Below, one piece after another: positions 41,622 to 54,291 of a DNA stretch of 64,000 bases. The notes below the pieces were generated by a model, which did no database searches, was not told the origin of the DNA, and saw only the letters and a list, made by a program, of their open reading frames with translations. Origin of the DNA: Candidatus Zhuqueibacterota bacterium (GTDB lineage: Bacteria; Zhuqueibacterota; Zhuqueibacteria; Thermofontimicrobiales; Thermofontimicrobiaceae); contig JBMOPW010000034.1 in assembly GCA_049322915.1 (NCBI GenBank), forward strand, positions 1-64,000, read 5' to 3'. Both the position numbers and the translations under genes were made by a program. Within the stretch, counting starts at the first letter, position 1; each line of letters starts with the position of its first letter.

Positions 41622-42212
41622 ATGAAAATAAGTCAAAGAACCTTTGATAAACCACAAAACGAAGAATTTGGAAAGGATCAAAAAATGGAAAAAACATTTA
41701 ACATCAACACATCAAGCCCCACAGCCACCGTGACCGATTCAACAATGATTTTTGAAGGGATACGATTTGTCGGGGATATTTCAGGTACTCATGATCTGTA
41801 TCTGAACGGTGAAATTGAAGGGAGCGTTGATCTGTCCGCCAATATGACGATCGGACGCACCGGCAGATTCAAGGGCGAAATCAAAGCTCAGAAAGTGATG
41901 ATTGAAGGCGAAGTCGAAGGCAAGGTTCATGCGTTAGATAAAGTTGAACTGCGCGATGGCGCCAAATTCAACGGCGACACAACCTCGCCATCGATCATGA
42001 TATCCGACCAGGCCTTTTTCCAGGGCAATGTCACCATGGTCGTGAATAAGCCAAATCAGGCAAGCACAACGAAGAAGGACAGCTACTCAAAGGATATGGA
42101 TAAAGAGAAATCCATGGATGGAAAAATAAAGATCGTCGACGATATATCCTCGTCACCTGAGCATGAAGAGAAAAGCAGCAAAAAATCCAAACTGATGGAT
42201 TCGTTCAATTAA
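41622..42212 (+). CDS. Bactofilin (polymer-forming cytoskeletal protein)
   Basis: Beta-helix repeats FVGDISG..LNGEIEGSV..IEGEVEGKV..FQGNV; charged tail; GAGGTG RBS. Confidence 0.9.
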   Translation: MKISQRTFDKPQNEEFGKDQKMEKTFNINTSSPTATVTDSTMIFEGIRFVGDISGTHDLYLNGEIEGSVDLSANMTIGRTGRFKGEIKAQKVMIEGEVEGKVHALDKVELRDGAKFNGDTTSPSIMISDQAFFQGNVTMVVNKPNQASTTKKDSYSKDMDKEKSMDGKIKIVDDISSSPEHEEKSSKKSKLMDSFN

Positions 42213-42392: not shown

Positions 42393-43544
42393 CTAAAAAA
42401 TGGTGTAGCCGTTGTTCTTCATCAGGACCATGGATTTTTCGTTCTTAAAATTCAAAATAACCTGCTCAATGTGAATTCGGGGCTGAGTCTCAGGGATGTA
42501 AATTCTATCGATATGGACCACCTTTTCGATAGAAGTGAAATTGGCGGCGCCAACGGCGCCACCGAAATGATCGCTTCTCCCGAAGGCGATATGCAATCCC
42601 AATTTTTCGTCCAATAAAATTTCACCGCTGGGAAGCACGCCAAAATCCTTCAGCACGCCAAATCCTAACTCTGCAATATTCGCATAGGCTGGTTCCGACG
42701 CAATGTATTTCGCCTCAGCGTCTGAACGGGCGCCACGACTGATCACCTCTTTTGCTGTGTTATTCTCCAATCGGTAGAGCACAACTTCATCGTCGAATTG
42801 AACCGGCAGGACGCCGGACGATTCGCTGGCCGCATCTTGCTCGCCTTCGTAGGGCACAATGTAACTTTCACCGCTGGGCAAATTTCCGGCTGTGCCCGGA
42901 TCAGGCAATCGCCCGCCGCTGGCATGCGCTGTACGAAAACGGAGGTCGAAGTGGCAGGTATACTCCTGCTTTCCATCGACTAAAAACTGGACGTCCAGCG
43001 AATCGGCTTTGTCCAGCAATTTCTTTATTTCAAAGACGCGGCGATTGATCTCTTCGTAATCCAGCCGCAGGGAAGGAATCATTTCAGCAGTGAACCCCGG
43101 CATTGTGGCCGCCCTGAAATTGGATTTTTTAGCCAGCAGCTTCAGAGGCGCTGTCGCTGAAAATTGTGTCGGCGCTAGGATGATCTGGCAGGTATCCAGA
43201 TAGGCGGCAAAATCGAACGGAATGCCTTTGGACAGAAGCGTTCCGGCAGTGACGGTCGCAGCAGAGCCGTTGTAACGGAATGCCTGCTTTGGCAGATCCG
43301 CATTGTTGCTGTGCACATTGGGGTAAAAGACCAGATCAACGTCGCTGAGCTGCAATTCGGTTTTCGCTTCGCGCAGCTTGCCGTGCCACTCACTCGCCAT
43401 TTCGCGGCGCATGCGCCATTTATCGATGTCAGCGACTTTTTCATCGGGCACATCGATGAGTATGGCCAAGCGCCTGTCGTCTTTCCCGGGCGAAAAAACA
43501 GAACGTACCAGATTGATCAATTCGTGGATAGTCAATGTTTCCAT
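42393..43544 (-). CDS. M29-like (thermophilic metalloprotease) aminopeptidase-family protein
   Basis: ATMPG, GNLPSGE, ELGFG, LDEK..HIAFG, VHID. Confidence 0.75.
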   Translation of the reverse strand: METLTIHELINLVRSVFSPGKDDRRLAILIDVPDEKVADIDKWRMRREMASEWHGKLREAKTELQLSDVDLVFYPNVHSNNADLPKQAFRYNGSAATVTAGTLLSKGIPFDFAAYLDTCQIILAPTQFSATAPLKLLAKKSNFRAATMPGFTAEMIPSLRLDYEEINRRVFEIKKLLDKADSLDVQFLVDGKQEYTCHFDLRFRTAHASGGRLPDPGTAGNLPSGESYIVPYEGEQDAASESSGVLPVQFDDEVVLYRLENNTAKEVISRGARSDAEAKYIASEPAYANIAELGFGVLKDFGVLPSGEILLDEKLGLHIAFGRSDHFGGAVGAANFTSIEKVVHIDRIYIPETQPRIHIEQVILNFKNEKSMVLMKNNGYTIF

Positions 43545-43586: not shown

Positions 43587-44729
43587 TTATCTTGGCGAAA
43601 CGTCTGTGGGAACCGCTCCAGCGTGGAGAAACGAAGCGCTGTTCATTGGGTGCAACTGAATGGTGTAGCTGGTGTCGAAAATGACTTCAGTAACCACAAC
43701 CATTTTTTGGAAGATGCCGTCAATGCCGAGGATGTAGGTTACCTGAAGCGAATCATTGTTCATTTCTTCGACCAGTTGACTTTTCAAATCGTGAACAGGG
43801 AATCCGTAACCGTGAAGCGTTGTTTTTATTTCAATCGGAAACTCGAATCGGCCGGATCGAAAAACAGTCTCGCCGGCATCCTGATCCAGGGTGAGGCCAA
43901 TTGGAATGGCTTTGTCGTACGGCTGGACATGGTGGAAATATTCCCGGTACACTGGTTTGGAAAATCCAAAGATGTAGGTGAGAAGTCCGGCAGATCCCGC
44001 AATGCACGCCCATTTCAACACAGGGTATTTTCTCTTCCAGTCCGGGCCGGGTGTCGTCGAAGATCGTCTCATGAGAAAATCGATGACAGCGGCTGCGCCG
44101 CACGTCATCCCGCCGGACCAGAGGACGTCCGATAAAAAGTGGCCCCCCTGAGCCATGCGCGCCGTGCCGATATAGAGTCCCATGGCCAGGCTCATTGCCA
44201 GCGCGATGTGAGCAAGACGCGGATTTTTCTTTCGATACATAAAATAAAAAACAATCAGGAAAAACCCGGTCGATGCATGCCCGCTGGGGAACGAGGCGCC
44301 TTTGCCAGGAATGCCCGGTTGCCAGACTTCGTGATATGTCCATTTGCCGCCGAATTGCTCGATTTGCCGTGGCCGTGGCCGGCCCCAGTGGTCTTTGAAA
44401 ATGCCATTGACCAGCAATCCCGGGCCTAAAATGAAACTGAGAATGATGAATTGTGCGTTTCGTCTGAGCGGGGCCAAATTTGAAATCTTCAGGCTGAGGA
44501 AAAATACAGCAAGAGCGGCAACAAAAATGAGAATGGCAGGGTAGGGGCCGTAGTGATAAGCCAATGTCCAGGGCACGGAATTCCGCTGATACCAACCCGA
44601 CGAGGTTGAGTCGTAAAAATAAGATTCGATTTTCAGATCGAGATTTAAAAAAGAAATGGCGCCTGTGATCAGGGCTAAAATAAATAGACTGATCATGGCG
44701 ATCAACAAAAAGTGGCTGGGTCGATTCAT
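43587..44729 (-). CDS. PAP2-family membrane phosphatase with C-terminal soluble extension
   Basis: K..WGRPRP, SFPSGH, R...GGHFLSD. Confidence 0.88.
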   Translation of the reverse strand: MNRPSHFLLIAMISLFILALITGAISFLNLDLKIESYFYDSTSSGWYQRNSVPWTLAYHYGPYPAILIFVAALAVFFLSLKISNLAPLRRNAQFIILSFILGPGLLVNGIFKDHWGRPRPRQIEQFGGKWTYHEVWQPGIPGKGASFPSGHASTGFFLIVFYFMYRKKNPRLAHIALAMSLAMGLYIGTARMAQGGHFLSDVLWSGGMTCGAAAVIDFLMRRSSTTPGPDWKRKYPVLKWACIAGSAGLLTYIFGFSKPVYREYFHHVQPYDKAIPIGLTLDQDAGETVFRSGRFEFPIEIKTTLHGYGFPVHDLKSQLVEEMNNDSLQVTYILGIDGIFQKMVVVTEVIFDTSYTIQLHPMNSASFLHAGAVPTDVSPR

Positions 44730-44806
44730 GCGATGTATTTCAATGAAATGAAAAGCACAACCCGCAGGCTGTGCTTTTTATCAATTCCGAACGTGATTAT
44801 CAAGAA

Positions 44807-46651
44807 TTACCGATACCCGGCCGGTCTCGGCGGTCGGGACTTGCTCACCCACGATTGCGATGATCCGGGAATTCCAGCGCCATCCACAGGGGACGCTGAA
44901 GTATCCGGCATAAAGACCTGCTTCGTCTTTGTGTCTTTGTAAATTTGGAACGAACTTTCTGCCTCTTTCAAAATCTCGGGTTTCAACCCCTCGCTGGCAA
45001 TTTCATCGGTGAATTTGCGCCGGCCGTCGACAATGTCCTTCAAGTAAAAATCGACTTGTTCTCTCGAGTACAGCTTGAAGGGATTGTACGGTTCAATATC
45101 GCCGCCCTGGCACCAGACAACTTCCTCTGTCCCAAAGATGCCGCGCTGATATTTGTTGGTTCCTCTCAAATCCCCGCGCTGAATGGCGGCCATGAGATTG
45201 ATCGGGACGCGGGTCACCTTTCGAATAACGCGCTTTTTCGGAATTGAGCCATCCATATAGTTATCGATGATCTCCCCGACGCCGCCGGTATTGTACTGAT
45301 AAAATTCAACCTTGCCCGGAAATTTATCCATCAAGTCCATAATAATGCTGTAAAAGCGATTGACTTTGTTGGCGCGCGAACCGACAATGAACGGGTCAGT
45401 GCCCACAACGCGCACAGATTCGCCGGCTTTATCCGGCTGAGAGGCGTAGCTGTGACTGGATTCGCCCCAGAGATAGGCCAGCACAGCCTGCTCGGCCGTG
45501 AGGCGCTGCGCGAACGGCATGATCGTGTTGCGCCGTGTGATGAATGCAAAGGCGATCCCATCCAATTCTTCGAGCGGCGGAAGATTGATGCTCTTGGAAT
45601 CAATGCCGACGAGCTTTCTGCCGCGCTTTATTCTCAGTTTATCTTTGCGAATCACAGCCCGACCATTGCCGCATAAATTTTCATCCAAAAAATCGGGATT
45701 GCCATTCGAATCGATCATGACGTTTTCGTAGAGCGCGGACTTGTCAATCAGCGCGTAGTACATGGCTTCTTGCAGCTCTTTGTCCACGTCTGTTTTAACG
45801 AAGAAGCCCTGCTCGCTGCCATAGGCAGAACCGTCCCGGCGCAGAAATACAATGTCATCCTGCACAGCTTCAGTGCGTTCGCCTTTGGTGTAATCCAATC
45901 CCAACTGGTGGCAGGACCAGGTCGATTTCCCAGTCGCCGAAAGGCCGAAAAGAAAAATGCCGTATCGCTTGAGTTTATTATCCCGTTCATCCCGCACATA
46001 GACTAATTTGGTGCCGGCATGCAAACCGAGCATTCCGTGTTCGTCCGCGTACCACATGGCCTGTCGTAGAAAGCCCTTTTTATCCTCGCCCATATAATCG
46101 GTGCCCAGGGCGATGTTCAAATTATACTCAGGCAACGCCAGTACCTGCTGCCGTATCTGATGTTCCTCCGGAATATGAATCATGGTAAATTCGGGGCCAG
46201 GTCGTTTCGTAGGATTGCCGAGCGTGTTGCCCCACATGTAAGCGATGCGGTGATTTTTAGGATCGGCAGTGGACATGTAAAGATTGCAAATCGGATTGAA
46301 TTCGCTGTTATCGCCCATCTGCCTCCGGATATGGACGAAGGGCAGAGTGCGCATCAGATGCAGCACTTTGTGAAGCTCCTCCGGCGCGCTTTCAATTAAT
46401 TTCGCATGCAAGTCCGATGGTTTGGGAAGCCGCACACGCTCACTCCCAAGATACACGGTCCGGGGAGCGACGCGGCTGGAGACCGCAGAACGCCAGCCAT
46501 AGGAACCGTACTTAGTTTTTGTGCCTCTGGAAAAAGCAAGCTTTCCCAACTTTTTCAAATCATAATGCTTAATAGTTTTACCATCCAACAGGGGTTTCAG
46601 GTTTTGAGAGAATCGTTTGTAGTCCTCTTCGTGGTAAGTTACAGTGCTCAT
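44807..46651 (-). CDS. pckA: Phosphoenolpyruvate carboxykinase (ATP)
   Basis: GTDYMGEDKKG, LHAG, GLSATGKST, QDD, ENV, NGR, NTG. Confidence 0.88.
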   Translation of the reverse strand: MSTVTYHEEDYKRFSQNLKPLLDGKTIKHYDLKKLGKLAFSRGTKTKYGSYGWRSAVSSRVAPRTVYLGSERVRLPKPSDLHAKLIESAPEELHKVLHLMRTLPFVHIRRQMGDNSEFNPICNLYMSTADPKNHRIAYMWGNTLGNPTKRPGPEFTMIHIPEEHQIRQQVLALPEYNLNIALGTDYMGEDKKGFLRQAMWYADEHGMLGLHAGTKLVYVRDERDNKLKRYGIFLFGLSATGKSTWSCHQLGLDYTKGERTEAVQDDIVFLRRDGSAYGSEQGFFVKTDVDKELQEAMYYALIDKSALYENVMIDSNGNPDFLDENLCGNGRAVIRKDKLRIKRGRKLVGIDSKSINLPPLEELDGIAFAFITRRNTIMPFAQRLTAEQAVLAYLWGESSHSYASQPDKAGESVRVVGTDPFIVGSRANKVNRFYSIIMDLMDKFPGKVEFYQYNTGGVGEIIDNYMDGSIPKKRVIRKVTRVPINLMAAIQRGDLRGTNKYQRGIFGTEEVVWCQGGDIEPYNPFKLYSREQVDFYLKDIVDGRRKFTDEIASEGLKPEILKEAESSFQIYKDTKTKQVFMPDTSASPVDGAGIPGSSQSWVSKSRPPRPAGYR

Positions 46652-46703
46652 TTCGATTTCCTGGCTTGGGATAGTGAACAGGGAATGTCAATTTTAATTG
46701 CTG

Positions 46704-46732
46704 AATATAAGATATTTGGACATAAAAAGCAA
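46704..46732 (-). promoter_or_regulatory. sigma70-type promoter for pckA
   Basis: Minus strand TTGCTT-N17-TATATT. Confidence 0.6.
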
Positions 46733-46887
46733 CTGCTTTTTTAGTTGCCAAAATCACTTGTTTCGTGTTTGTGTTTAAATGAAAAACAAAAATAGGTATT
46801 CATCGGAATGCTAATTATTATCTAAAGAGATTCCATTTAAAAGCCTAATAATTACTGATCACGGATGAAAAAAAGTAAAAAAATTTG

Positions 46888-46916
46888 TTGCAATATATTT
46901 TAAATATCCCTATATT
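46888..46916 (+). promoter_or_regulatory. sigma70-type promoter for flotillin
   Basis: TTGCAA-N17-TATATT. Confidence 0.65.
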
Positions 46917-46989
46917 TCCCGACATTTAATCGCCTATAAATTTTTAATTTATTTTCCGCTCACCAATTAAGAGCACCAAGGAGGAACGA

Positions 46990-48402
46990 ATGGAACTAAC
47001 AACGGTTAATTTGCTCATCATTATCGGGTCTGTCGTCATCATCATTGCTTTGTTTATTCTGGCATTAGCCAAGCAATATCGCAAGGTGGGGCCTAATGAA
47101 GTCCTCATCATTTCAGGAGGTCGATCACACAAAGTCACGGATCCGGATGGAACAGTCAAGAAAATAGGGTATCGTATGAGTATTGGTGGCGGTACTTTCG
47201 TGAAGCCGTTCATTGAACAAGTTCAGACACTACCCCTGGAAATTTACACGCTGCAGGTGAAAACGCCGGAAGTGATCACCTCTCAGGGCGTAAATATCAT
47301 CGCCGAAGCAAGCGCTCAGGTGAAAATTAAAAGTGATGAGTTTTCGATTCGAAAAGCTGCGGAACAATTTTTAGGCACTGGATCTCAGGGAATAAAGGAC
47401 GTCTCCTTCAGCGTGCTCGAGGGCTTTGTTCGGGCGATCATCGGCACCATGTCCGTCGAGGACATCTATCGCAACCGCGATAAATTCGCCGAACGAGTCA
47501 TCACCGACTCCCGAATCGATTTTGATCGAATGGGGCTGGAAGTTCTTTCGTTCGCGCTGCGCGATATCAGCGATACCCAGGGATACCTCAATTCGCTGGG
47601 TCTTCCTCGAATTGCACAGGTTAAAAAAGACGCCGCCATTGCCCAGGCCGAGACTGATAAAGAAGCGACCATCAAAGCGGCCCAGGCCAGAAAAGACGGA
47701 GACATTGCCAAACTGAAAGCTGAAATTGAAATCTCCAAAGCCAACCGCGATTTTGAATCGCAGCGCGCTCAGTACCAGGCGGACATTAACCAGAAGCGTG
47801 CACTGGCCGATTTCTCCTACGAACTGGAAAAATATCGTATCGTGCAGCAGATAAAGAAAGAAGAGTCAATGGTAAAATTGATTGAAAAAGAGCAGGCCAT
47901 TAAAATCGAAGAGATGGAAATTTCCCGCAAAGAAAAAGAGCTGGATGCGTCCGTGAAAAAAGCTGCTGATGCGACCAATTACCAGTTGAAATCCCAGGCC
48001 GAGGCTGAAGGCTATCGCATTAAAGAAGAGGCCAAAGCTCAGGTTGAGGCGAAAAAGCTGGAAGGACTGGCCGAAGCAGCATTGATCAGAGCCAAAGGCG
48101 AGGCCGAAGCGGATGCCATGCGCATGAAAGCGGAATCATGGAAAGACTACAATGATGCAGCAATCTATAAAATGGTCATCGATGCGCTGCCGGAATTGGC
48201 CCGCGCCGTCTCCGAGCCATTGTCCAGAATTGAAAAGATCATCATGGTCGGCGGTGGTGATGGTGCGAACGGCGTTTCCAAAATCACCGAACAGGTTGCC
48301 CAGGTTTTGGCGCAACTGCCAACAGTCGTTCAATCTCTCAGTGGCGTTGATTTGACAAAGCTATTGAAAAATCTTCCCGGACAGGAGCAGAAAGACAAAT
48401 AA
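46990..48402 (+). CDS. Flotillin (SPFH domain, FloT-like)
   Basis: AAGGAGG RBS; N-terminal TM, YRKVGPNEVLIISG, GGGTFV, AAEQFLG, EA-rich coiled coil. Confidence 0.92.
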   Translation: MELTTVNLLIIIGSVVIIIALFILALAKQYRKVGPNEVLIISGGRSHKVTDPDGTVKKIGYRMSIGGGTFVKPFIEQVQTLPLEIYTLQVKTPEVITSQGVNIIAEASAQVKIKSDEFSIRKAAEQFLGTGSQGIKDVSFSVLEGFVRAIIGTMSVEDIYRNRDKFAERVITDSRIDFDRMGLEVLSFALRDISDTQGYLNSLGLPRIAQVKKDAAIAQAETDKEATIKAAQARKDGDIAKLKAEIEISKANRDFESQRAQYQADINQKRALADFSYELEKYRIVQQIKKEESMVKLIEKEQAIKIEEMEISRKEKELDASVKKAADATNYQLKSQAEAEGYRIKEEAKAQVEAKKLEGLAEAALIRAKGEAEADAMRMKAESWKDYNDAAIYKMVIDALPELARAVSEPLSRIEKIIMVGGGDGANGVSKITEQVAQVLAQLPTVVQSLSGVDLTKLLKNLPGQEQKDK

Positions 48403-48637
48403 TCAGGTAATTGCCGATCATTTCAGCCGGGATTCCAATTCTTCCCGGACACAATGATCGTCAATTTTCCGATGAGCAGATTGTCGCTGCGCGCCGAGAG
48501 AGACTCCCTGCGCGCTGCGGGGCGTTCCACATCCATCCCGGGTGGGATTGATTTTTCCCATGATAGAAATCGACGTAATAACATTAGCTCACAATTCATG
48601 AACTGTTGTCATTACCAAAACTAAGAAGATTACTTAT

Positions 48638-51028
48638 ATGATATCAACGAGAGTACAGGAAATTGGATTTTCTCCGACATTGCGAATAAACGCCAAAGCG
48701 CAGGCCATGCGCGCAGAGGGCATTGACGTCATCGATTTGAGCGTCGGTGAGCCGGACTTTGCCACGCCGGAGAATATCAAAGATGCCGGGAAGGCCGCAA
48801 TTACCAAGAACCTGACCAAATATACGGCCAATGCCGGAATTCCACAGCTCAAAAAAGCGATTATCAATCGCATTTTCAATGATCATGGCATTACGTATGA
48901 ACCAGACGAAATCATTGTTTCCAGCGGCGCAAAAAACAGTCTTTACAACGTGGCCATGGCCATTTTCAACCACGGGGAAGAGGCAATTTTACCGGCGCCG
49001 TACTGGGTGTCTTATCCTCATATCATCAAACTGGCAAAGGGTGTGCCTGTTGTCATCCCGACGCGAGAAGAGAATGGCTTCAAATTGACGCCAAAAGATT
49101 TGAGCCGGGCCATCAATTCAAATTCAAAAGTGCTCATTCTGAATAACCCCAGCAATCCGACCGGCGCGACTTACTCGCGCGATGAATTGGAGGAGTTGGC
49201 CGATATTGCCATTGATGAAGGCCTGTTGATCATCGCCGATGAAATTTACGAGAAACTGGTTTACGATGGCTTTCGATTCTGCAGCATCGCGGAGTTGGGT
49301 GAAAAAGTGAAGCAAAATACAGTGATCATCAATGGCGTTTCCAAAGCGTACGCCATGACCGGCTGGCGAATCGGATTTGCTGCCGGCCCCAAAGACATCA
49401 TTGCTGCCATGGGAAAAGTCCAGAGTCACAGCACGTCCAACGCGAGTTCGATTTCCCAGTATGCCAGTGTCGAGGCCTTTGCCGGGCCGCAGAACGAAAT
49501 CAATAAGATGGTGTCTGAATTTCAGCAGCGGCGTAATTACATGCATTACCGATTGAGCCAAATTCCCAAAATTTCCTGCTATAAATCCCAGGGCGCATTT
49601 TATCTCTTCCCGAATTTTTCCGCCTATTACGATATGGCCTACGAAGGCAATCCAATCAGGAATTCGCACGGACTGGCCTATTATCTTTTGAAACACGCGC
49701 ACGTTGCCATTGTGCCCGGCGATGCATTTGGCGATGATAAATTCATCCGATTTTCCTACGCCACATCCAGGGAAAACATAGAGAAAGCCATGGATCGGAT
49801 CACTGAGGCCATGGGCAAATTGGTGCCGATTAAAAAATCATCAAAAAAACCGCTGAACAATACTGTCACTCAGCGAAAGTCATTTGTGGAAACTGAGGCG
49901 AACATCAGTCTGGAAATGCGCAATGCGCTCCTGGCTGAGTCGGAAGCTTTCATGACGTTCGAAGGCTATTATGAATGGAATGTCAATATTGCCGGCATCA
50001 TCGTTCAGCTTCGGACAAATAGCCCGCATCTCTATGAGTTCTGGATGGAGAATTTTTACCCGGCCCAGTTGGAAACAGATCTGGAACCACACGCTATCAT
50101 TTATGCGGTGAACTGGATCACGGGACGCGAGGCGCGAGCCTTCTACAACCCTGAATCGCGGACTGTGTTTTACTTCAAATCCGCTTTCTATCCTCAGTTG
50201 CGGAGCCTGGCTCTGGGAATGGTCGCTGATATCACGGAGCGGTTGTACGACATGCACATGGTTCGCGCCCAGTCCGTGGATATTGCTGGCAAAGGGATGC
50301 TGCTCATCGGTCCCCCGGGCACCGGTAAAATGGACCAGTTTGCGGAATTATTGAAGCAGCCAGGGATCAAGCTGCACTCCAACGACGTTGTCCTGATGCG
50401 ATATGTCGGCAATGAAGCGTTCGCCGATGGGGTGGAGAGAAAATTCACCATGTCCACCGATTTTGTCGAGAAGTACCCGCAGATGGTGAGCCTGTTCGAC
50501 ATGAGCAAATGTGAAAATGTGGTCACCTCGAAAGAAGAATGCACAAACGAGAAATGCAAAAGGGAGGACAATTGTCGACTGGATCGCGGAGCGCCATACT
50601 GCTTTTCGGCGTCGGAGCAGTCCATTGCGTTGCTCGACCCCTATTGGCTGGGCGGGCCGGAAAAGCATGTGAAACGAACTTCAGTGCGATGGGTTGTCAT
50701 TTTTAGAAAAGATCCCATTGCTCCGGCAATAGTGAAGGCAACGCCTGAAGATGCCATCAAATTTCTTGAAGAAGGCAGAAATCCGAGCAGCTATGGTAGC
50801 GCGCAGAACGTTCCTTTCTTCAATCCCCATCTGCTCATTAAATCGATAGATCGAATTGATAGTCAAAAACAAAATTTCAAAAAGCTATTCAAGTCGGCAT
50901 CGGTTTACATTGTGAATGCCGGGATGGAATCCAAAGAAGCAATCAAACAGAGGATTTCCGCGCTGGTCGCTGGCAATGAAGAATCGGCGCTGAAGTTATT
51001 CTCGAAGGCAACAGAGCAATATAAATGA
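48638..51028 (+). CDS. Class I aspartate aminotransferase fused to a PEPCK/HPr-kinase-like P-loop domain
   Basis: aa 1-~395: GEPDF, NNPSNPTG, ADEIY, SKAYAMTGWRIG, RFSY. C-half: GPPGTGKM, HSND, five-Cys cluster, FFNPH. Confidence 0.85.
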   Translation: MISTRVQEIGFSPTLRINAKAQAMRAEGIDVIDLSVGEPDFATPENIKDAGKAAITKNLTKYTANAGIPQLKKAIINRIFNDHGITYEPDEIIVSSGAKNSLYNVAMAIFNHGEEAILPAPYWVSYPHIIKLAKGVPVVIPTREENGFKLTPKDLSRAINSNSKVLILNNPSNPTGATYSRDELEELADIAIDEGLLIIADEIYEKLVYDGFRFCSIAELGEKVKQNTVIINGVSKAYAMTGWRIGFAAGPKDIIAAMGKVQSHSTSNASSISQYASVEAFAGPQNEINKMVSEFQQRRNYMHYRLSQIPKISCYKSQGAFYLFPNFSAYYDMAYEGNPIRNSHGLAYYLLKHAHVAIVPGDAFGDDKFIRFSYATSRENIEKAMDRITEAMGKLVPIKKSSKKPLNNTVTQRKSFVETEANISLEMRNALLAESEAFMTFEGYYEWNVNIAGIIVQLRTNSPHLYEFWMENFYPAQLETDLEPHAIIYAVNWITGREARAFYNPESRTVFYFKSAFYPQLRSLALGMVADITERLYDMHMVRAQSVDIAGKGMLLIGPPGTGKMDQFAELLKQPGIKLHSNDVVLMRYVGNEAFADGVERKFTMSTDFVEKYPQMVSLFDMSKCENVVTSKEECTNEKCKREDNCRLDRGAPYCFSASEQSIALLDPYWLGGPEKHVKRTSVRWVVIFRKDPIAPAIVKATPEDAIKFLEEGRNPSSYGSAQNVPFFNPHLLIKSIDRIDSQKQNFKKLFKSASVYIVNAGMESKEAIKQRISALVAGNEESALKLFSKATEQYK

Positions 51029-51031
51029 AAT

Positions 51032-51066
51032 AGGGGCGCACGACATCGCATGCGCCCTTTTCTTTT
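51032..51066. terminator. Intrinsic terminator
   Basis: aggggcgca..tgcgccctttt between convergent genes. Confidence 0.75.
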
Positions 51067-51479
51067 CATTCGATAAAATCAATGTCCATTCGGACTTTGC
51101 GCTGGAAGATTGAGTACATGTCCTTCAAAAAATTCCCTTCGACATCCATTTTTACTGCCATGGTGAAGAAGACAAATTCCACCGGGATTCGTTCGGCGTC
51201 TTTTCCCTGTCCCACACGCTCCATCTTGTTTTTGACAGTGAAATCTTCAATACTCACATTTTCAAATTCAATGTTGTTGTCGTACTGATCGTACGGCGTT
51301 AGTTTCAATTTAATAAGCCGCTTCCTGAAGCCGGCAAACAGGTCAGAAATTTGCAGGGTGTTATTCAACTGCGCCTCGCCTTTGAAGACCATTTTATCGA
51401 GGGTCTCCTTGGTCTCCGGATTCTTTTCCTGCTTGGGCTGAAAAGCCGTAATGCGTGCATCGTCAAATGTGCTGCTCAT
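51066..51479 (-). CDS. Hypothetical protein with internal two-fold repeat
   Basis: 137-aa ORF; own promoter TTGAAA-N17-TAAATT (51592-51564). Confidence 0.7.
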   Translation of the reverse strand: MSSTFDDARITAFQPKQEKNPETKETLDKMVFKGEAQLNNTLQISDLFAGFRKRLIKLKLTPYDQYDNNIEFENVSIEDFTVKNKMERVGQGKDAERIPVEFVFFTMAVKMDVEGNFLKDMYSIFQRKVRMDIDFIE

Positions 51480-51983
51480 TGTATTTTTCCCTTGTGTTAG
51501 ATGTAAATTTCAACCAATCACGAGTTAATGTTCACTTGAAATGGATGCTCAGAAATGGCGCCTAATTTACTCATTTGGAATTTATATTTCAAGAGAAATA
51601 TATTGTAATTTTCATTGCTCTGGTTTTATTGTTAAAACGAACAGCCTGAAAAGAATTTGCAAATTCAGACAACCTATAAAAAATGGATGACTGACATTCC
51701 GCCTCTGCTGTCCATACACGTCAGCGCTTTTCCGATTGTACTCTTTCATTGATTGCACTTGCCGGATCAGCCCGAGATGCTGTTTCCAGGACAGACAGCG
51801 TCAATTGACGAAAAGCATTGACCCTAAAAAAAAATTGTCCATTGAAGATCGATGTTGGATTTAAAAATTGCTTGCATTATAAGAAATAAATTATTAAATT
51901 CAGCCGTTAAAATTTGGTCAACTAAAAAGGCAAAGGCAATCTTGGAATTTGCCAGAGGTAAACACACCCCATTGGCGCACCGG

Positions 51984-52628
51984 ATGAATCAATTTTTTGA
52001 TGCCCGGGAAAAGATGGTCGCAGAACAACTGGCGAATCGGGGGATTTCGAACCAGGACATTCTGAAAACTATGCGCAAAATTGAACGGCATTTCTTTGTC
52101 GATAAGAAATATTGGGGCAAAGCCTACGAAGATTCGCCATTGCCCATTCCGTGTTCTCAGACAATTTCTCAGCCGTACATGGTCGCCTTGATGACTGAAT
52201 TAATCGAGCCCAATAAGTCAAAGCGGGTTCTTGAAATCGGTACCGGTTCAGGGTATCAAACCTCCATCCTGGCGGAGTTGTGCAAACAAGTCTACTCCAT
52301 CGAACGGCACCAGGAATTGGCGGATAGCGCATTTAAGCTGCTCACGCATCTGGGCTATCGCAACATCGAAATTACCACCACCGATGGGACTTTGGGTTGG
52401 CCGGAAGAGGCGCTCTTCGACGCAATCATTGTCACCGCTGGCGCGCCCGGTGTGCCTGAGCATCTTGTCAATCAATTGAAAGATGGTGGACGCATGGTAA
52501 TCCCGGTGGGGAGTGCGTATCAGCAGGATTTGTTGTTAGTCACCAAACGAAGCGACTCATACATCACAAAAACTATCTGCGGATGTATTTTTGTACCGCT
52601 GATCGGCAGCAAAGGATGGGGAGAATAA
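51984..52628 (+). CDS. pcm: Protein-L-isoaspartate O-methyltransferase
   Basis: AYED.PLPI..QTISQPYMVA, VLEIGTGSGYQ, FDAIIVTAG, FVPL; start position uncertain. Confidence 0.93.
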   Translation: MNQFFDAREKMVAEQLANRGISNQDILKTMRKIERHFFVDKKYWGKAYEDSPLPIPCSQTISQPYMVALMTELIEPNKSKRVLEIGTGSGYQTSILAELCKQVYSIERHQELADSAFKLLTHLGYRNIEITTTDGTLGWPEEALFDAIIVTAGAPGVPEHLVNQLKDGGRMVIPVGSAYQQDLLLVTKRSDSYITKTICGCIFVPLIGSKGWGE

Positions 52629-52670: not shown

Positions 52671-52745
52671 CGGGGCGTAGCGCAGCCCGGTTAGCGCGCC
52701 TGCTTCGGGAGTAGGAGGTCGGAGGTTCAACTCCTCTCGCCCCGA
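52671..52745 (+). tRNA. tRNA-Pro(CGG); CCA not encoded
   Basis: Acceptor cggggcg/cgccccg; anticodon arm cctgc-ttCGGga-gtagg; T arm ggagg-ttcaact-cctct. Confidence 0.97.
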
Positions 52746-52756
52746 CACATGAGATG

Positions 52757-52784
52757 AGGCCTTGTTGAATGACAGGGCCTTTTT
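52757..52784 (+). terminator. Terminator after tRNA
   Basis: aggccttgtt-gaat-gacagggcct-tttt. Confidence 0.75.
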
Positions 52785-52849
52785 CATTGGTGGAAACAGC
52801 TATCGACCTCGGCAACGTTCCTCAAAAATGAAATCCGCTTTTTTTGGGC

Positions 52850-52878
52850 TTGACATCCTCTGCGAATTTTATTATCTT
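52850..52878 (+). promoter_or_regulatory. sigma70-type promoter 6 nt before the ATG
   Basis: TTGACA-N17-TATCTT-acagcc-ATG. Confidence 0.7.
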
Positions 52879-52884
52879 ACAGCC

Positions 52885-54291
52885 ATGAAACAAAATAACG
52901 TGCTTCTGATAAATCCATGGATCTATGATTTTGCTGCCTATGATTTCTGGAATAAACCAGTCGGATTGTTATCAATAGGAAATACTCTCAGCCGAAATGG
53001 TTTTAGCACGCATCTCATTGATTGTCTCGATCGGCATCAGCTTCCCCCGCCGCTTCAGAATAACAAGAAATACGCTACTGGAAAATTTATCCGAACCCCG
53101 GCGCCGAAGCCTCATGCATTGAGCCACATCCCCCGACACTACTGCCGCTACGGCTTGCCCCTGAAACTCTTCCTGAAGCAATTGAATTCAATACCAACGC
53201 CGGACGTGGTCATGATCACTTCGGGCATGACGTACTGGTACGAAGGTGCGTTTTTCGCCATTCGTGTCATCCGTAAAAAATTCCCGGAAGCGCCGATTAT
53301 CCTGGGCGGAATCTACGCGACACTGTGCTACGAGCATGCTGATCGCCACGCCGGCGCGGATTATGTCATTAAAGGAAAAGGTGAGGAAGCCGCCTTGAAG
53401 CTCGCCTGCCTGTTGACTGGCCATCGCGGCGCAGAGACAGATACGTTAACTGCCATCCCGACTGCCAGTTATCACTATTACCCGGATCTGAAATCAATTC
53501 CAATTTTAACTTCAGTGGGATGTCCTTTCCGCTGCTCGTTTTGCGCGTCGCATTTGCTGTTTGATAAATTCATTCAACGCGACCCGGCAGAAGTGATCGG
53601 GGAGATTCACTCATATTATTCCAAACGCCACGTGCGCCACTTCGCCTTTTTCGATGACGCGCTGTTAATCAATCAGGAACGCCATCTGTCCGTTATTCTG
53701 GAGGGAATAAAGGCGCTCAAGGTCCGTGCCGCGTTCCATACGCCCAACGGAATTCATCCGCGGGAAATGACGCCGGAATTGGCCAGGCAGATGGCCGAGA
53801 CGAACTTCCAAACCATTCGGTTGAGTTTTGAAAGCATCAGCACGTCACGGCAAAAGGAGATGGGCTACAAAGTGACGAACGACGCTTTGGCCAATTCAGT
53901 GGATTACCTTGAAGCGGCCGGTTATGCGCGGAAGGATTTGGGAGTGTACGTGATTATGGGTTTGCCGGAGCAATCTGTGGATGAAGTTGTGGAGAGTATG
54001 CTTTTCGTGCATGGACTGGGCGCCAAAATCTATCTGTCGTCTTTCTCACCAATTCCCGGCACGCGCGATTGGGAAAAATCAGTGAATTTGTACAATCTGC
54101 CCAATAGCCTGGATCCGCTTTTAACCAACAATACCATTTATCCGTTGCATCGGAAAGATTTCACGTATGGCATGTTCGACACGCTGAGAAATTTTTCGAA
54201 AGTGCTCAATCACAGCCTGGATCAAAATATCAACCTGGTCACGTCAACTGAGATTTCGAGGGTTATGAGAAAATTATTTGCCGGGGATTAA
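52885..54291 (+). CDS. B12-binding-domain radical SAM protein
   Basis: LLINPWIYDFAAYD..KPVGLL, ILGGIYATL, GCPFRCSFC, FFDDALL. Confidence 0.9.
   Translation: MKQNNVLLINPWIYDFAAYDFWNKPVGLLSIGNTLSRNGFSTHLIDCLDRHQLPPPLQNNKKYATGKFIRTPAPKPHALSHIPRHYCRYGLPLKLFLKQLNSIPTPDVVMITSGMTYWYEGAFFAIRVIRKKFPEAPIILGGIYATLCYEHADRHAGADYVIKGKGEEAALKLACLLTGHRGAETDTLTAIPTASYHYYPDLKSIPILTSVGCPFRCSFCASHLLFDKFIQRDPAEVIGEIHSYYSKRHVRHFAFFDDALLINQERHLSVILEGIKALKVRAAFHTPNGIHPREMTPELARQMAETNFQTIRLSFESISTSRQKEMGYKVTNDALANSVDYLEAAGYARKDLGVYVIMGLPEQSVDEVVESMLFVHGLGAKIYLSSFSPIPGTRDWEKSVNLYNLPNSLDPLLTNNTIYPLHRKDFTYGMFDTLRNFSKVLNHSLDQNINLVTSTEISRVMRKLFAGD

Follow-up and report, generated by a model that had tools for sequence, protein, structure and literature searches.

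Within the window (the whole 64,000-nucleotide stretch of a Candidatus Zhuqueibacterota contig analysed here), a single uninterrupted open reading frame (48638..51028, plus strand; ORF list) with SKAYAMTGWRIG encodes a 796-aa protein that joins an aspartate aminotransferase (AspAT) half to a compact module with the fold of phosphoenolpyruvate (PEP) carboxykinase (PEPCK) and remodelled active-site positions. Our analysis established the fold of the module, its substitutions, its conservation and synteny, and an archaeal fusion of the same module to PEPCK itself. Our preferred reading, tentative and somewhat short of probable, is that the module would no longer catalyse but bind a partner or a ligand, and would thereby couple the conversion of aspartate, oxaloacetate and PEP; we infer both the binding and the loss of activity.

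Upstream of the fusion gene lies a gene for a 470-aa flotillin (46990..48402, plus strand) and, beyond an AT-rich intergenic region of 338 bp (46652..46989; 30% G+C), the gene for a 614-aa atypical ATP-type PEPCK (44807..46651, minus strand; ORF list and Pfam). The original prediction had the PEPCK divergent from the fusion. The orientation is indeed divergent, but the two genes are not direct neighbours; because the flotillin gene sits between them, the PEPCK diverges from the flotillin-fusion pair. Ten divergent intergenic regions were compared, and no motif was common to all of them. A terminator-like hairpin follows the PEPCK stop codon (44751..44778, minus strand; a 12-pair stem and then a T-rich tail, consensus match only). 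A G+C-rich hairpin (51034..51057; a 9-pair stem with 7 G-C pairs, again a consensus match only) separates the fusion gene from a convergent 137-aa ORF, and may possibly be a terminator common to both.

Judged by its residues, the N-terminal half (aa 1-395; 48638..49822, plus strand) is an intact class-I AspAT, as originally predicted. PF00155 matched aa 30-388 (E 8.5e-81, 272 bits), the PLP lysine lies within SKAYAMTGWR, and the PLP and substrate residues (K236, N173, D201, Y204 and R371) were invariant in 28 sequences. The top solved-structure match was the AspAT 1j32 (E 3.2e-107), and this half aligned end to end with the class Ib AspATs (1j32, 6f35, 1bkg, and the plant bifunctional aspartate/prephenate aminotransferase 5wmh), keeping their PLP lysine and substrate residues. 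Compared with these enzymes, the fusion alone adds the 400-aa C-terminal module and a 9-residue, family-specific insertion, around aa 327-345, whose RNS.G..Y was also invariant in the 28 sequences. The score against the NCBIfam equivalog was below the cut-off (428 vs. 617). The genome encodes a second AspAT-like protein (39% identity), so that the housekeeping role need not fall to the fusion.

The predicted model of the C-terminal module (aa 396-796; 49823..51028, plus strand) had a pLDDT of 83.6 and a pTM of 0.84. Foldseek returned 134 PDB matches at E ≤ 0.001, the best being 2pc9_B (E 5.8e-17), and VIA aligned 360 of 401 residues with T. cruzi PEPCK (1ii2_B; Z 26.0, rmsd 3.8), whereas HPr kinase/phosphorylase (HprK/P) reached just Z 12-13, over residues 143-401. 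The predicted structure is a complete but compact two-lobed PEPCK fold, more than an HPr-kinase lobe. The structure check proposed for aa 400-796 therefore bore out the PEPCK part of the original assignment; what it had called a PEPCK/HPrK-like domain is a whole PEPCK fold rather than an HPr-kinase-like one. In Pfam searches the C-terminal half had no match at all to PF01293 and a sub-threshold match to PF07475 HprK_C (aa 540-594; 16.1 bits, cut-off 33.3), and HprK scores were far below family cut-offs (TIGR00679, 24 bits; 1jb1 profile, E 2.9e-5). Aligned by hhalign, the C-half family and the neighbouring PEPCK family matched over 194 columns (probability 97.5%, E 8.8e-12), and the module profile found the neighbouring PEPCK in its own genome at E 1.7e-6. 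The full-length monomer model (pTM 0.53) gave no confident domain packing, and so no channel between active sites is predicted.

At about 400 aa, the module is shorter than the ATP-PEPCKs (PckA, PF01293; 1ii2, 2pc9, 1oen and 1aq2; 520-610 aa), with which it shares the whole two-lobed fold and the motif order. It retains their Glu205, Glu231-Asn232 (the ENV motif), Asp188 and N-T-G motif, but shows replacement or variation at the positions aligned with the catalytic Tyr and His, both Lys, the first Asp, the substrate Arg and the Ser/Thr of the P-loop, and it alone has a Cys4 insert and an aminotransferase fusion. The C-terminal P-loop lobe is similar to that of HprK/P (PF07475, TIGR00679), but, unlike HprK/P, the module has a PEPCK-type N-terminal lobe and overall architecture, and its P-loop is not conserved. 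The model also matched NDUEG2 (8j9h; Z 19.7, 279 residues aligned), a shortened PEPCK-fold accessory subunit of Euglena gracilis complex I, a membrane-associated assembly (Nat Commun 2024, PMC10884005). According to the available text of that report, PEPCK activity was undetectable and the authors judged NDUEG2 unlikely to be functional. Unlike the module, NDUEG2 is eukaryotic and a stand-alone complex I subunit lacking an aminotransferase fusion, and the same text describes no link to a flotillin or a soluble PEPCK partner.

The neighbouring PEPCK matched PF01293 PEPCK_ATP at 91.1 bits (cut-off 26.5) and NF006821 at 288 bits, under the cut-off of 369. Its motifs can be aligned with those of solved ATP-PEPCKs, its aligned catalytic positions are invariant across 19 relatives, and its C-terminus is a conserved basic tail. 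It is the sole PF01293 match in the 6.25-Mb genome, which gave no match to PF00821 or PF00311. The synteny survey suggested with the original prediction found frequent linkage: of the 38 loci in which 2.5 kb or more flanks the fusion on each side, this PEPCK subfamily adjoins it in 31, in three different arrangements. A sample of 151 genomes from the phylum comprised 10 with both fusion and PEPCK, 1 with the fusion only (82% complete), 3 with PEPCK only and 137 with neither. A full-length PEPCK was present elsewhere in 4 of 5 genomes lacking an adjacent copy; in one closed MAG chromosome the fusion is intact but PEPCK is present just as two pieces. The divided PEPCK, the fusion-only genome and the 7 of 38 both-flank loci with no adjacent PEPCK count against our preferred reading.

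PEPCK linkage was also observed in archaea. Archaeal proteins of roughly 880-900 aa, forming 88 protein clusters and 88 of 104 matches, have the remodelled module on the N-terminal side and a PEPCK of the same subfamily behind it, a fusion independent of the bacterial one. This fusion suggests PEPCK as the module's primary partner. In 0 of 80 archaeal loci was an aminotransferase or flotillin gene found within 8 kb, and the aspartate link is therefore specific to the bacterial clade.

Residues at PEPCK catalytic and metal-binding positions are replaced in the module, with Arg systematically taking the place of Lys and of His, and there is drift in the Walker A loop. The key-residue swaps reported originally were seen in both profile and family alignments, and the motif pairs were reproduced (module/PEPCK: FYPQLRS/YMGEDKK, VRAQ/LHAG, GKMD/GKST and SND/QDD, with ENV kept), except that PEPCK Tyr186 aligns with Phe122 of the C-terminal half, not with the adjacent Tyr. 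We counted residues in 81 bacterial fusions, 39 archaeal modules and 10 stand-alone relatives. At the position aligned with Lys191, Arg occurs in 80/81 bacterial and 38/39 archaeal sequences and Lys in 10/10 stand-alone relatives; the His211-aligned position is R69 H8 N3 E1 in bacteria, Arg in 38/39 archaeal modules and His in 10/10 stand-alone relatives. The Tyr186-aligned position is N37 Y26 F15 in bacteria vs. Tyr in 10/10 stand-alone relatives, and Arg331 is matched by Arg in 25/81, 0/39 and 10/10, respectively. In the decayed Walker A loop (GPPGTGKMD; 50309..50335, plus strand; aligned to PEPCK and to bacterial fusions), Met stands where Ser/Thr follows the P-loop lysine in PEPCK. Among the bacterial fusions the preceding residue is G40/K35/N5/R1, the following one T38/S18/M9/A6/V3/K2/G2, and the lysine itself also varies. 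Asp188, Glu205, Arg206 and Lys207 are invariant or nearly so in the 81 fusions, and the glycine-rich loop is retained in outline.

The arginines at the Lys- and His-aligned positions, the four kept residues and the outline of the glycine-rich loop would suit a cis metabolite sensor, whose metal-free, Arg-lined pocket binds PEP, oxaloacetate, nucleotide or pyrophosphate and tunes the aminotransferase allosterically, without docking of PEPCK. Persistence of the fusion in the 7 loci without adjacent PEPCK also speaks for this, and there is a conceptual precedent in malic enzymes with a fused C-terminal phosphate-acetyltransferase domain, which a review describes as inactive (PMC8100219). There too, an enzyme of the PEP-pyruvate-oxaloacetate node carries a C-terminal enzyme-derived domain, but neither the folds nor the enzymes are related, and the analogy is in logic only. 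We consider such a sensor unlikely, since the fusion partner of the archaeal module is PEPCK and not an aminotransferase, and since the bacterial fusion is co-distributed with this PEPCK subfamily.

The bacterial modules carry a Cys-rich insert (50510..50602, plus strand; alignment of 81 bacterial fusions) that is probably a metal site. C240, C245, C251 and C260 (module numbering) are invariant in 81/81 bacterial fusions and C230 is present in 78/81; the segment has low pLDDT, and the four-Cys insert is deleted in 39/39 archaeal modules. These four cysteines were absent from the original prediction. About 55 alignment columns are invariant, many of them polar, including, across phyla, E51, N53, N55, Q62, R64, N66, H69, E84, E88, H90, R102, E103, D136, R193, E205, R206, K207, E231, N232, D254 and D272. 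This conservation, the cysteines, and purifying selection comparable, in close relatives, to that on the aminotransferase half (81% vs. 84% identity at one locus) could point to a new enzyme with a rebuilt site and a Cys4 metal centre, performing decarboxylation of oxaloacetate or a related acid, tautomerisation, or chemistry with another phosphoryl donor. Against our preferred reading, the invariant columns and cysteines exceed the usual need of a docking surface, and a ligand site or new catalytic site would fit them equally. Yet the Walker A lysine and its two flanking positions vary within the clade, the Tyr- and Arg-aligned positions vary freely, archaeal modules share the Arg/Arg signature without the Cys insert, and profile searches matched no enzyme family beyond PEPCK and HprK. 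A new activity thus seems improbable to us.

The most constant neighbour of the fusion, unmentioned in the original prediction, is the flotillin gene. Its product has SPFH/Band 7 (PF01145, 94.4 bits) and Flot (PF15975, 39.9 bits) domains and a hydrophobic N-terminus, and scored 384 bits against NF058507 FloT, under the cut-off of 700. The gene lies directly upstream in 72/72 testable loci (median gap 69 nt), a tighter link than that of PEPCK (31/38). Flotillin could accordingly be the main partner, tethering the aminotransferase to membrane flotillin assemblies, with PEPCK secondary. We hold this to be very unlikely: none of the 80 archaeal loci has flotillin within 8 kb, and the clade-specific invariant insertion of the aminotransferase half could serve equally.

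The fusion extends far beyond this assembly, as the proposed conservation survey found. A search at E ≤ 1e-3 matched 738 proteins, and among species-representative genomes a relative is encoded in 332 stretches. An assembly chimera or read-through of two adjacent genes, for which we found no evidence, is virtually excluded by the one open frame without a stop, by the same AspAT fusion in 80/80 loci from independent assemblies and several phyla, and by PF00155 in 119/120 database proteins among the matches listed.

The nearest sequence relatives of the module are small stand-alone PEPCK/HprK-like proteins (about 350-470 aa; unnamed, without their own Pfam family), with E down to 1e-56. They share with it the fold-defining T16, L63, H69, Y123, E205, E231-N232 and N365, and 6/11 have its four cysteines, but they are unfused and mostly keep a kinase-type signature (Y-K-H-GK[ST]-DD in 22/33 of stand-alone length). 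The original prediction had missed these intact relatives.

In our preferred reading, of a non-catalytic binding module, the 796-aa protein would be an active class-I AspAT whose C-terminal module descended from this small protein family. The module would have lost the phosphoryl transfer that depends on ATP and Mn, and would now serve as a partner- or ligand-binding domain, in which a conserved cationic cleft and the Cys4 insert persist. It may associate with the neighbouring PEPCK, the only such match in the genome. Aspartate would then be converted to oxaloacetate by the aminotransferase, and oxaloacetate to PEP by PEPCK, as one unit, if flux runs in this direction, and the co-transcribed flotillin would probably organise this unit at the membrane. 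Our literature search found no description of this aminotransferase-PEPCK-module family. A gene that fuses AspAT to a copy of PEPCK, and that keeps company with PEPCK and flotillin, hints that two central-metabolic steps are physically connected in a way not yet described.

The 796-aa protein encoded at 48638..51028 (+ strand) is a single open reading frame (ORF) in which an aminotransferase half (residues 1–395; Pfam Aminotran_1_2, PF00155, residues 30–388, 272.4 bits) precedes a C-terminal module (residues 396–796), and this arrangement recurs well beyond the assembly that holds the window. A word-indexed protein search, with 8000 candidates scored, returned 738 proteins at E ≤ 1e-3; among the matches listed, 119 of 120 carried PF00155, and most were about 786 aa long. 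A relative is encoded in 332 stretches (one genome per species), and the aminotransferase half abuts the module in all 80 loci that we compared. The source records, from KSB1, Zixibacteria, Latescibacteria, Gemmatimonadota, Aminicenantes and Acidobacteriota, name these fusions as aminotransferases only. About 400 residues are thus left unannotated in public records, which means that the module is overlooked when the metabolism of these phyla is reconstructed. In a quick tree, from which 4 partial rows were left out, all 29 sampled bacterial fusion modules formed one clade (SH-aLRT 98), which is compatible with one origin of the fusion. The feature is real, conserved and unannotated; the function of its module we infer.

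The original prediction described the C-half as a PEPCK/HPrK-like domain, and the PEPCK part of that description holds. An AlphaFold2 model of the module (29 sequences; pLDDT 83.6, pTM 0.84) retrieved ATP-dependent PEPCKs first in a Foldseek search of the PDB (2pc9_B, E = 5.8e-17, TMq 0.66; 1oen, TMq 0.70; both query-normalised). Compared by VIA-align with about 48,000 representative chains, the model matched T. cruzi PEPCK (1ii2_B) over 360 of 401 residues, spanning module residues 9–401 (Z 26.0, rmsd 3.8), followed by a GTP-PEPCK (Z 20.1), a PEPCK-fold subunit of Euglena complex I (Z 19.7) and a PPi-PEPCK (Z 13.7). HPr kinases/phosphorylases, in contrast, aligned with module residues 143–401 only (Z 11–13), so an HPrK-type architecture is not what the model has. 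Both structure searches recover the two-lobed PEPCK fold, and because the PEPCK match runs through nearly the whole model and the HprK match does not, the model shows an entire PEPCK fold in compacted form rather than an HPr-kinase domain.

By sequence, the C-half falls below the gathering cut-off of PF01293 (PEPCK_ATP), Pfam giving no match to it in the fusion at E ≤ 0.01. A search against solved structures gave weak P-loop matches only (E ≥ 0.13), and NCBIfam gave HprK-type models far below cut-off; the curated HprK thresholds lay out of reach as well (PF07475, 16.1 vs. 33.3 bits; TIGR00679, 24 vs. 240). Homology to PEPCK is visible only by profile-profile comparison and through intermediates such as P0198, a relative that scores above cut-off for PEPCK_ATP as well as HprK_C in Pfam. 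In hhalign, the module family matched the family of the neighbouring PEPCK with 97.5% probability (E = 8.8e-12, 194 columns), and the module profile finds that neighbour in its own genome (E = 1.7e-6). The closest family is ATP-PEPCK, but the C-half falls outside it by score and at almost all of the aligned catalytic positions. In this genome the module profile also gave two weaker matches confined to the P-loop region (E about 1e-6; loci L082, G000:C45:30407-30610, and L084, G000:C14:1083225-1083401); they lie in ORFs of 338 and 361 aa, which are presumably HprK-type proteins.

The claim that key PEPCK residues are swapped in the C-half was borne out by hhalign. Pairing invariant residues of the neighbouring PEPCK with the module (numbered from its own start) aligns Tyr186 with Phe122, Lys191 with Arg127, Lys192 with Ser128, His211 with Arg148, Lys242-Ser243 with Lys169-Met170, Asp265-Asp266 with Asn187-Asp188, Lys286 with Ser211 and Arg331 with Ile268. 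We take these positions to be catalytic or metal-binding in E. coli PckA, the two substituted by Arg being presumably metal-binding. Among the eight residues Tyr186, Lys191, Lys192, His211, Asp265, Asp266, Lys286 and Arg331, only Asp266 is kept (module Asp188), and the same pattern extends across the clade.

We tallied these positions in 81 bacterial fusions, 39 archaeal modules and 10 stand-alone relatives, setting P0122 aside because its N-terminus is an aminotransferase tail, i.e. it is a fusion fragment. The position of Lys191 is Arg in 80 bacterial fusions and 38 archaeal modules and Lys in all 10 stand-alone proteins; that of His211 is Arg in 69 bacterial fusions (H8, N3, E1) and 38 archaeal modules, and His in the 10 stand-alone proteins. 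These Lys-to-Arg and His-to-Arg changes are systematic across the clade. Tyr186 is replaced more variably (bacterial N37, Y26, F15, G2, H1; archaeal S19, F8, N6 and others; stand-alone Y10), as is Arg331 (bacterial R25, Y16, H11, I7, F7, V6 and others; archaeal without Arg; stand-alone R10). The first Asp reads N50, D16 and others in bacteria, N17, D8 and others in archaea and D10 in stand-alone proteins, and the second D78 and E3, D28 and E11, and D10, respectively. The Walker A pattern G-x-x-G-x-G-K-[ST] is broken in the window, where the module reads GPPGTGKM; in the 81 bacterial fusions the residue preceding the P-loop Lys, Gly in the pattern, is G40/K35/N5/R1 and the one following it T38/S18/M9/A6/V3/K2/G2. 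The full signature Y-K-H-GK[ST]-DD is kept in 22 of 33 stand-alone-length relatives from a 1.8-billion-protein library, which indicates that the module descends from proteins resembling working P-loop phosphotransferases and has lost exactly that signature. In sequence it matches the concept of a pseudo-enzyme, an enzyme homologue without its catalytic residues, and it is predicted to be inactive. The module is nevertheless strongly constrained: 55 columns, many of them polar, do not vary among 29 module sequences from several phyla. Four stand-alone proteins of 381–410 aa (P0199, P0231, P0257 and P0238) form a separate clade (SH-aLRT 99) that has also lost the kinase-type signature; remodelling has therefore occurred more than once in the family.

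A representative search also found the module in a second setting: P0145 has a module of this family ahead of a PEPCK that belongs to the subfamily of the neighbouring PEPCK. A dedicated search returned 104 proteins at E ≤ 1e-5, of which 16 were aminotransferase fusions and 88 were PF01293-bearing proteins of about 880–900 aa, assigned by name to Hodarchaeota, Helarchaeota, Freyarchaeota, Lokiarchaeota, Bathyarchaeia, Altiarchaeota and a few bacterial bins. Like the bacterial ones, the modules of these proteins have the Arg/Arg signature and a decayed P-loop, but they lack a cysteine insert. In bacteria, this insert lies where PEPCK has the loop leading to Arg331 (hhalign) and is the least confident part of the module model; all 81 bacterial fusions keep the same four cysteines. 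Among 80 metagenome loci of this PEPCK type, the module is present in 41 (contig ends truncate some of the remaining 39), and none has a flotillin or an aminotransferase of the fusion kind within 8 kb. In the quick tree, the archaeal modules form one clade (SH-aLRT 100) within an unresolved group that also holds the bacterial clade and four signature-keeping stand-alone proteins. The module-PEPCK protein is a second, independent fusion.

In the window, the fusion gene follows a flotillin gene (46990..48402, + strand; 470 aa), and the PEPCK gene (44807..46651, − strand; 614 aa) diverges from this pair across a 338-bp spacer of 30% G+C. The flotillin exceeds the Pfam cut-offs of Band 7 (PF01145, 94.4 bits) and Flot (PF15975, 39.9 bits) and stays below that of the FloT equivalog NF058507 (384.5 vs. 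700 bits). In 72 of the 80 loci it is the immediate upstream neighbour in the same orientation; the remaining 8 begin inside the aminotransferase or ≤191 nt before it, so every one of the 72 testable loci has the flotillin gene. The flotillin-fusion gap has a median of 69 nt and is 235 nt in the window.

The atypical PEPCK is found in 51 of the 80 loci. It is frequently linked to the fusion: of the 38 loci that extend 2.5 kb or more past the flotillin-fusion pair on either side, 31 have PEPCK adjoining the pair (in 20 it follows directly on the same strand, in 9 it is divergent and upstream, the arrangement of the window, and in 2 it is upstream on the same strand), and 7 lack it there. Whole-genome searches of five genomes without an adjacent PEPCK found a full-length member of the same subfamily elsewhere in four (1068–1150 bits). 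The fifth, the closed MAG chromosome G151 (locus L067), has intact fusion and flotillin genes and a PEPCK in two pieces only (L166 and L167). One of these pieces corresponds to residues 389–614, in a short ORF far away, and the other to residues 5–69, on the strand opposite to flotillin and about 9 kb upstream of it. Across 151 genomes of the window's phylum, the fusion occurs in 11 and the PEPCK in 13: both in 10, fusion only in 1 (82% complete), PEPCK only in 3 and neither in 137. All carriers belong to two families of one order, and the counts describe co-distribution among kin genomes, not a statistical test. The genome that holds the window (6.25 Mb, 96% complete) has the neighbouring PEPCK as its sole PF01293 match, and neither a GTP-PEPCK domain nor a PEP carboxylase domain was found in it.

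Base composition across 44807..51028 is unremarkable. A scan placed terminator-like hairpins behind the PEPCK gene (44751-44778) and behind the fusion gene (51034-51057), the latter in common with a convergent 137-aa ORF (51066..51479, − strand) that has no Pfam match and is 86–90% identical in 5 related loci, where flanking genes are 77–84% identical. No 8–10-mer that could mark a shared operator in the divergent spacer was common to more than 5 of the 10 regions compared, a promoter-like scan stayed near shuffle expectation (12 found vs. 9.2 expected), and Rfam found one tRNA and nothing else in the whole window. Beyond the PEPCK gene lie a PAP2 phosphatase (43587..44729, − strand), whose PAP2 domain covers residues 96–213 only and leaves about 165 C-terminal residues without assignment, and a 383-aa ORF without a Pfam match (42393..43544, − strand); both stand beside the PEPCK gene in one related locus only (L001). 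A bactofilin (41622..42212, + strand), a protein-L-isoaspartate O-methyltransferase (51852..52628, + strand), a tRNA (52671..52745, + strand) and a B12-binding radical SAM protein (52762..54291, + strand) are ordinary neighbours, and those tested are not conserved beside the fusion in the 80 loci.

The neighbour had been called an intact ATP-PEPCK. It scores above the PF01293 cut-off (91.1 bits), and its motifs Y-x-G-E-x-K-K, L-H-A, G-L-S-A-T-G-K-S-T, D-D, E-N-V and N-G-R align with the catalytic motifs of solved PEPCKs and are invariant in 19 relatives. It is divergent from the solved enzymes (best E = 3e-7) and misses the NCBIfam pckA and subfamily cut-offs (TIGR00224, 28.9 vs. 590 bits; NF006821, 288.4 vs. 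369). The protein is a putative enzyme of a divergent PEPCK subfamily. Bacterial members end in a variable linker and a conserved basic sequence, W-x-x-K-S-R-P-P-R...R-x-R, in the window the last ~15 codons of the gene (44807..44860, − strand). This tail, which archaeal module-fused PEPCKs lack, may be a docking or membrane-binding peptide.

The aminotransferase half is intact, as predicted. Its PF00155 score lies above the cut-off for class I membership, and all 28 fusion proteins compared keep the PLP-binding lysine (K236, in S-K-A-Y) together with the usual substrate-binding residues. The closest solved structure is the aspartate aminotransferase (AspAT) 1j32, matched end-to-end (E = 3.2e-107), followed by 6f35, 5wmh (a plant aspartate/prephenate enzyme) and 1bkg (Thermus). 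We infer aspartate specificity only from these enzymes, because the half scores below the NCBIfam aspartate-transaminase equivalog cut-offs (NF004769, 428.2 vs. 617 bits; NF041091, 406.8 vs. 550). A second AspAT-like gene in the same genome is 39% identical to it. Unlike 1j32 and this paralogue, the fused aminotransferase has a 9-residue insertion near residue 335 (fusion residues 327–345, about 49616..49672, + strand), whose motif RNS.G..Y is invariant in the 28 fusion proteins.

Tentatively, the reading that best fits is that the module is a non-catalytic PEPCK copy working with the real PEPCK. In archaea it is covalently attached to PEPCK; in bacteria its fusion partner is the enzyme that produces or uses up the substrate of PEPCK. 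Aspartate, oxaloacetate and PEP would thus be coupled, whichever way the flux runs. Arg at the two presumed metal positions, together with invariant Arg64, Arg206 and Lys207, suggests a metal-free pocket for an anionic ligand, and the constancy of the flotillin gene suggests a bacterial unit organised at the membrane. Because oxaloacetate is scarce and unstable, its hand-over between enzymes is an old question. A complex prediction of PEPCK (614 aa) with module residues 25–395 scored 0.00 and 0.25 against a mark of 0.32, which speaks neither for nor against binding. The full-length fusion monomer (pLDDT 71.2, pTM 0.53; module N-lobe below 50) gave no usable domain arrangement.

Three other functions were weighed. 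That the module is a cis-acting sensor is unlikely in our judgement, and that it is a new enzyme is equally so. A module that serves as a flotillin tether is a poorer prospect still; archaeal module loci showed no flotillin gene within 8 kb. An artefactual or chimeric fusion is rejected with near certainty, the same architecture being present in 80 of 80 loci and 119 of 120 listed proteins, and a relative being encoded in 332 stretches.

The closest precedent for a disabled PEPCK fold is NDUEG2, the Euglena complex I subunit, which its authors judge unlikely to be functional, PEPCK activity being undetected (PMC10884005). The available sections of a review of the PEP-pyruvate-oxaloacetate node mention neither flotillin nor an aminotransferase-PEPCK fusion (PMC8100219), and the full-text literature searched, with subscription journals outside its coverage, held no description of the aminotransferase-module fusion.

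Extending the partner reading to all of these parts gives a picture that we think improbable as a whole. The remodelled PEPCK copy would be an ancient subunit whose dedicated partner is a single PEPCK subfamily, fused to PEPCK in Asgard, Bathyarchaeia and other archaea and to aspartate aminotransferase in the FCB group and Acidobacteriota. The bacterial unit would be a flotillin-scaffolded, membrane-associated aspartate-oxaloacetate-PEP metabolon, with an arginine-lined, metal-free pocket that holds or senses oxaloacetate or PEP and the basic PEPCK tail as docking peptide. This natural, widely conserved construct is present in at least 332 genomes at species level, from phyla that have been little studied; in it an oxaloacetate-forming enzyme is tied to a putatively disabled copy of an oxaloacetate-consuming one, beside the presumed working copy and a candidate membrane scaffold. 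Docking of the module to PEPCK, if it occurs, would provide a directly testable pseudo-enzyme-mediated metabolon at the PEP-pyruvate-oxaloacetate node and a first metabolic client for a bacterial flotillin, and the archaeal fusions would carry the same logic to Asgard archaea.
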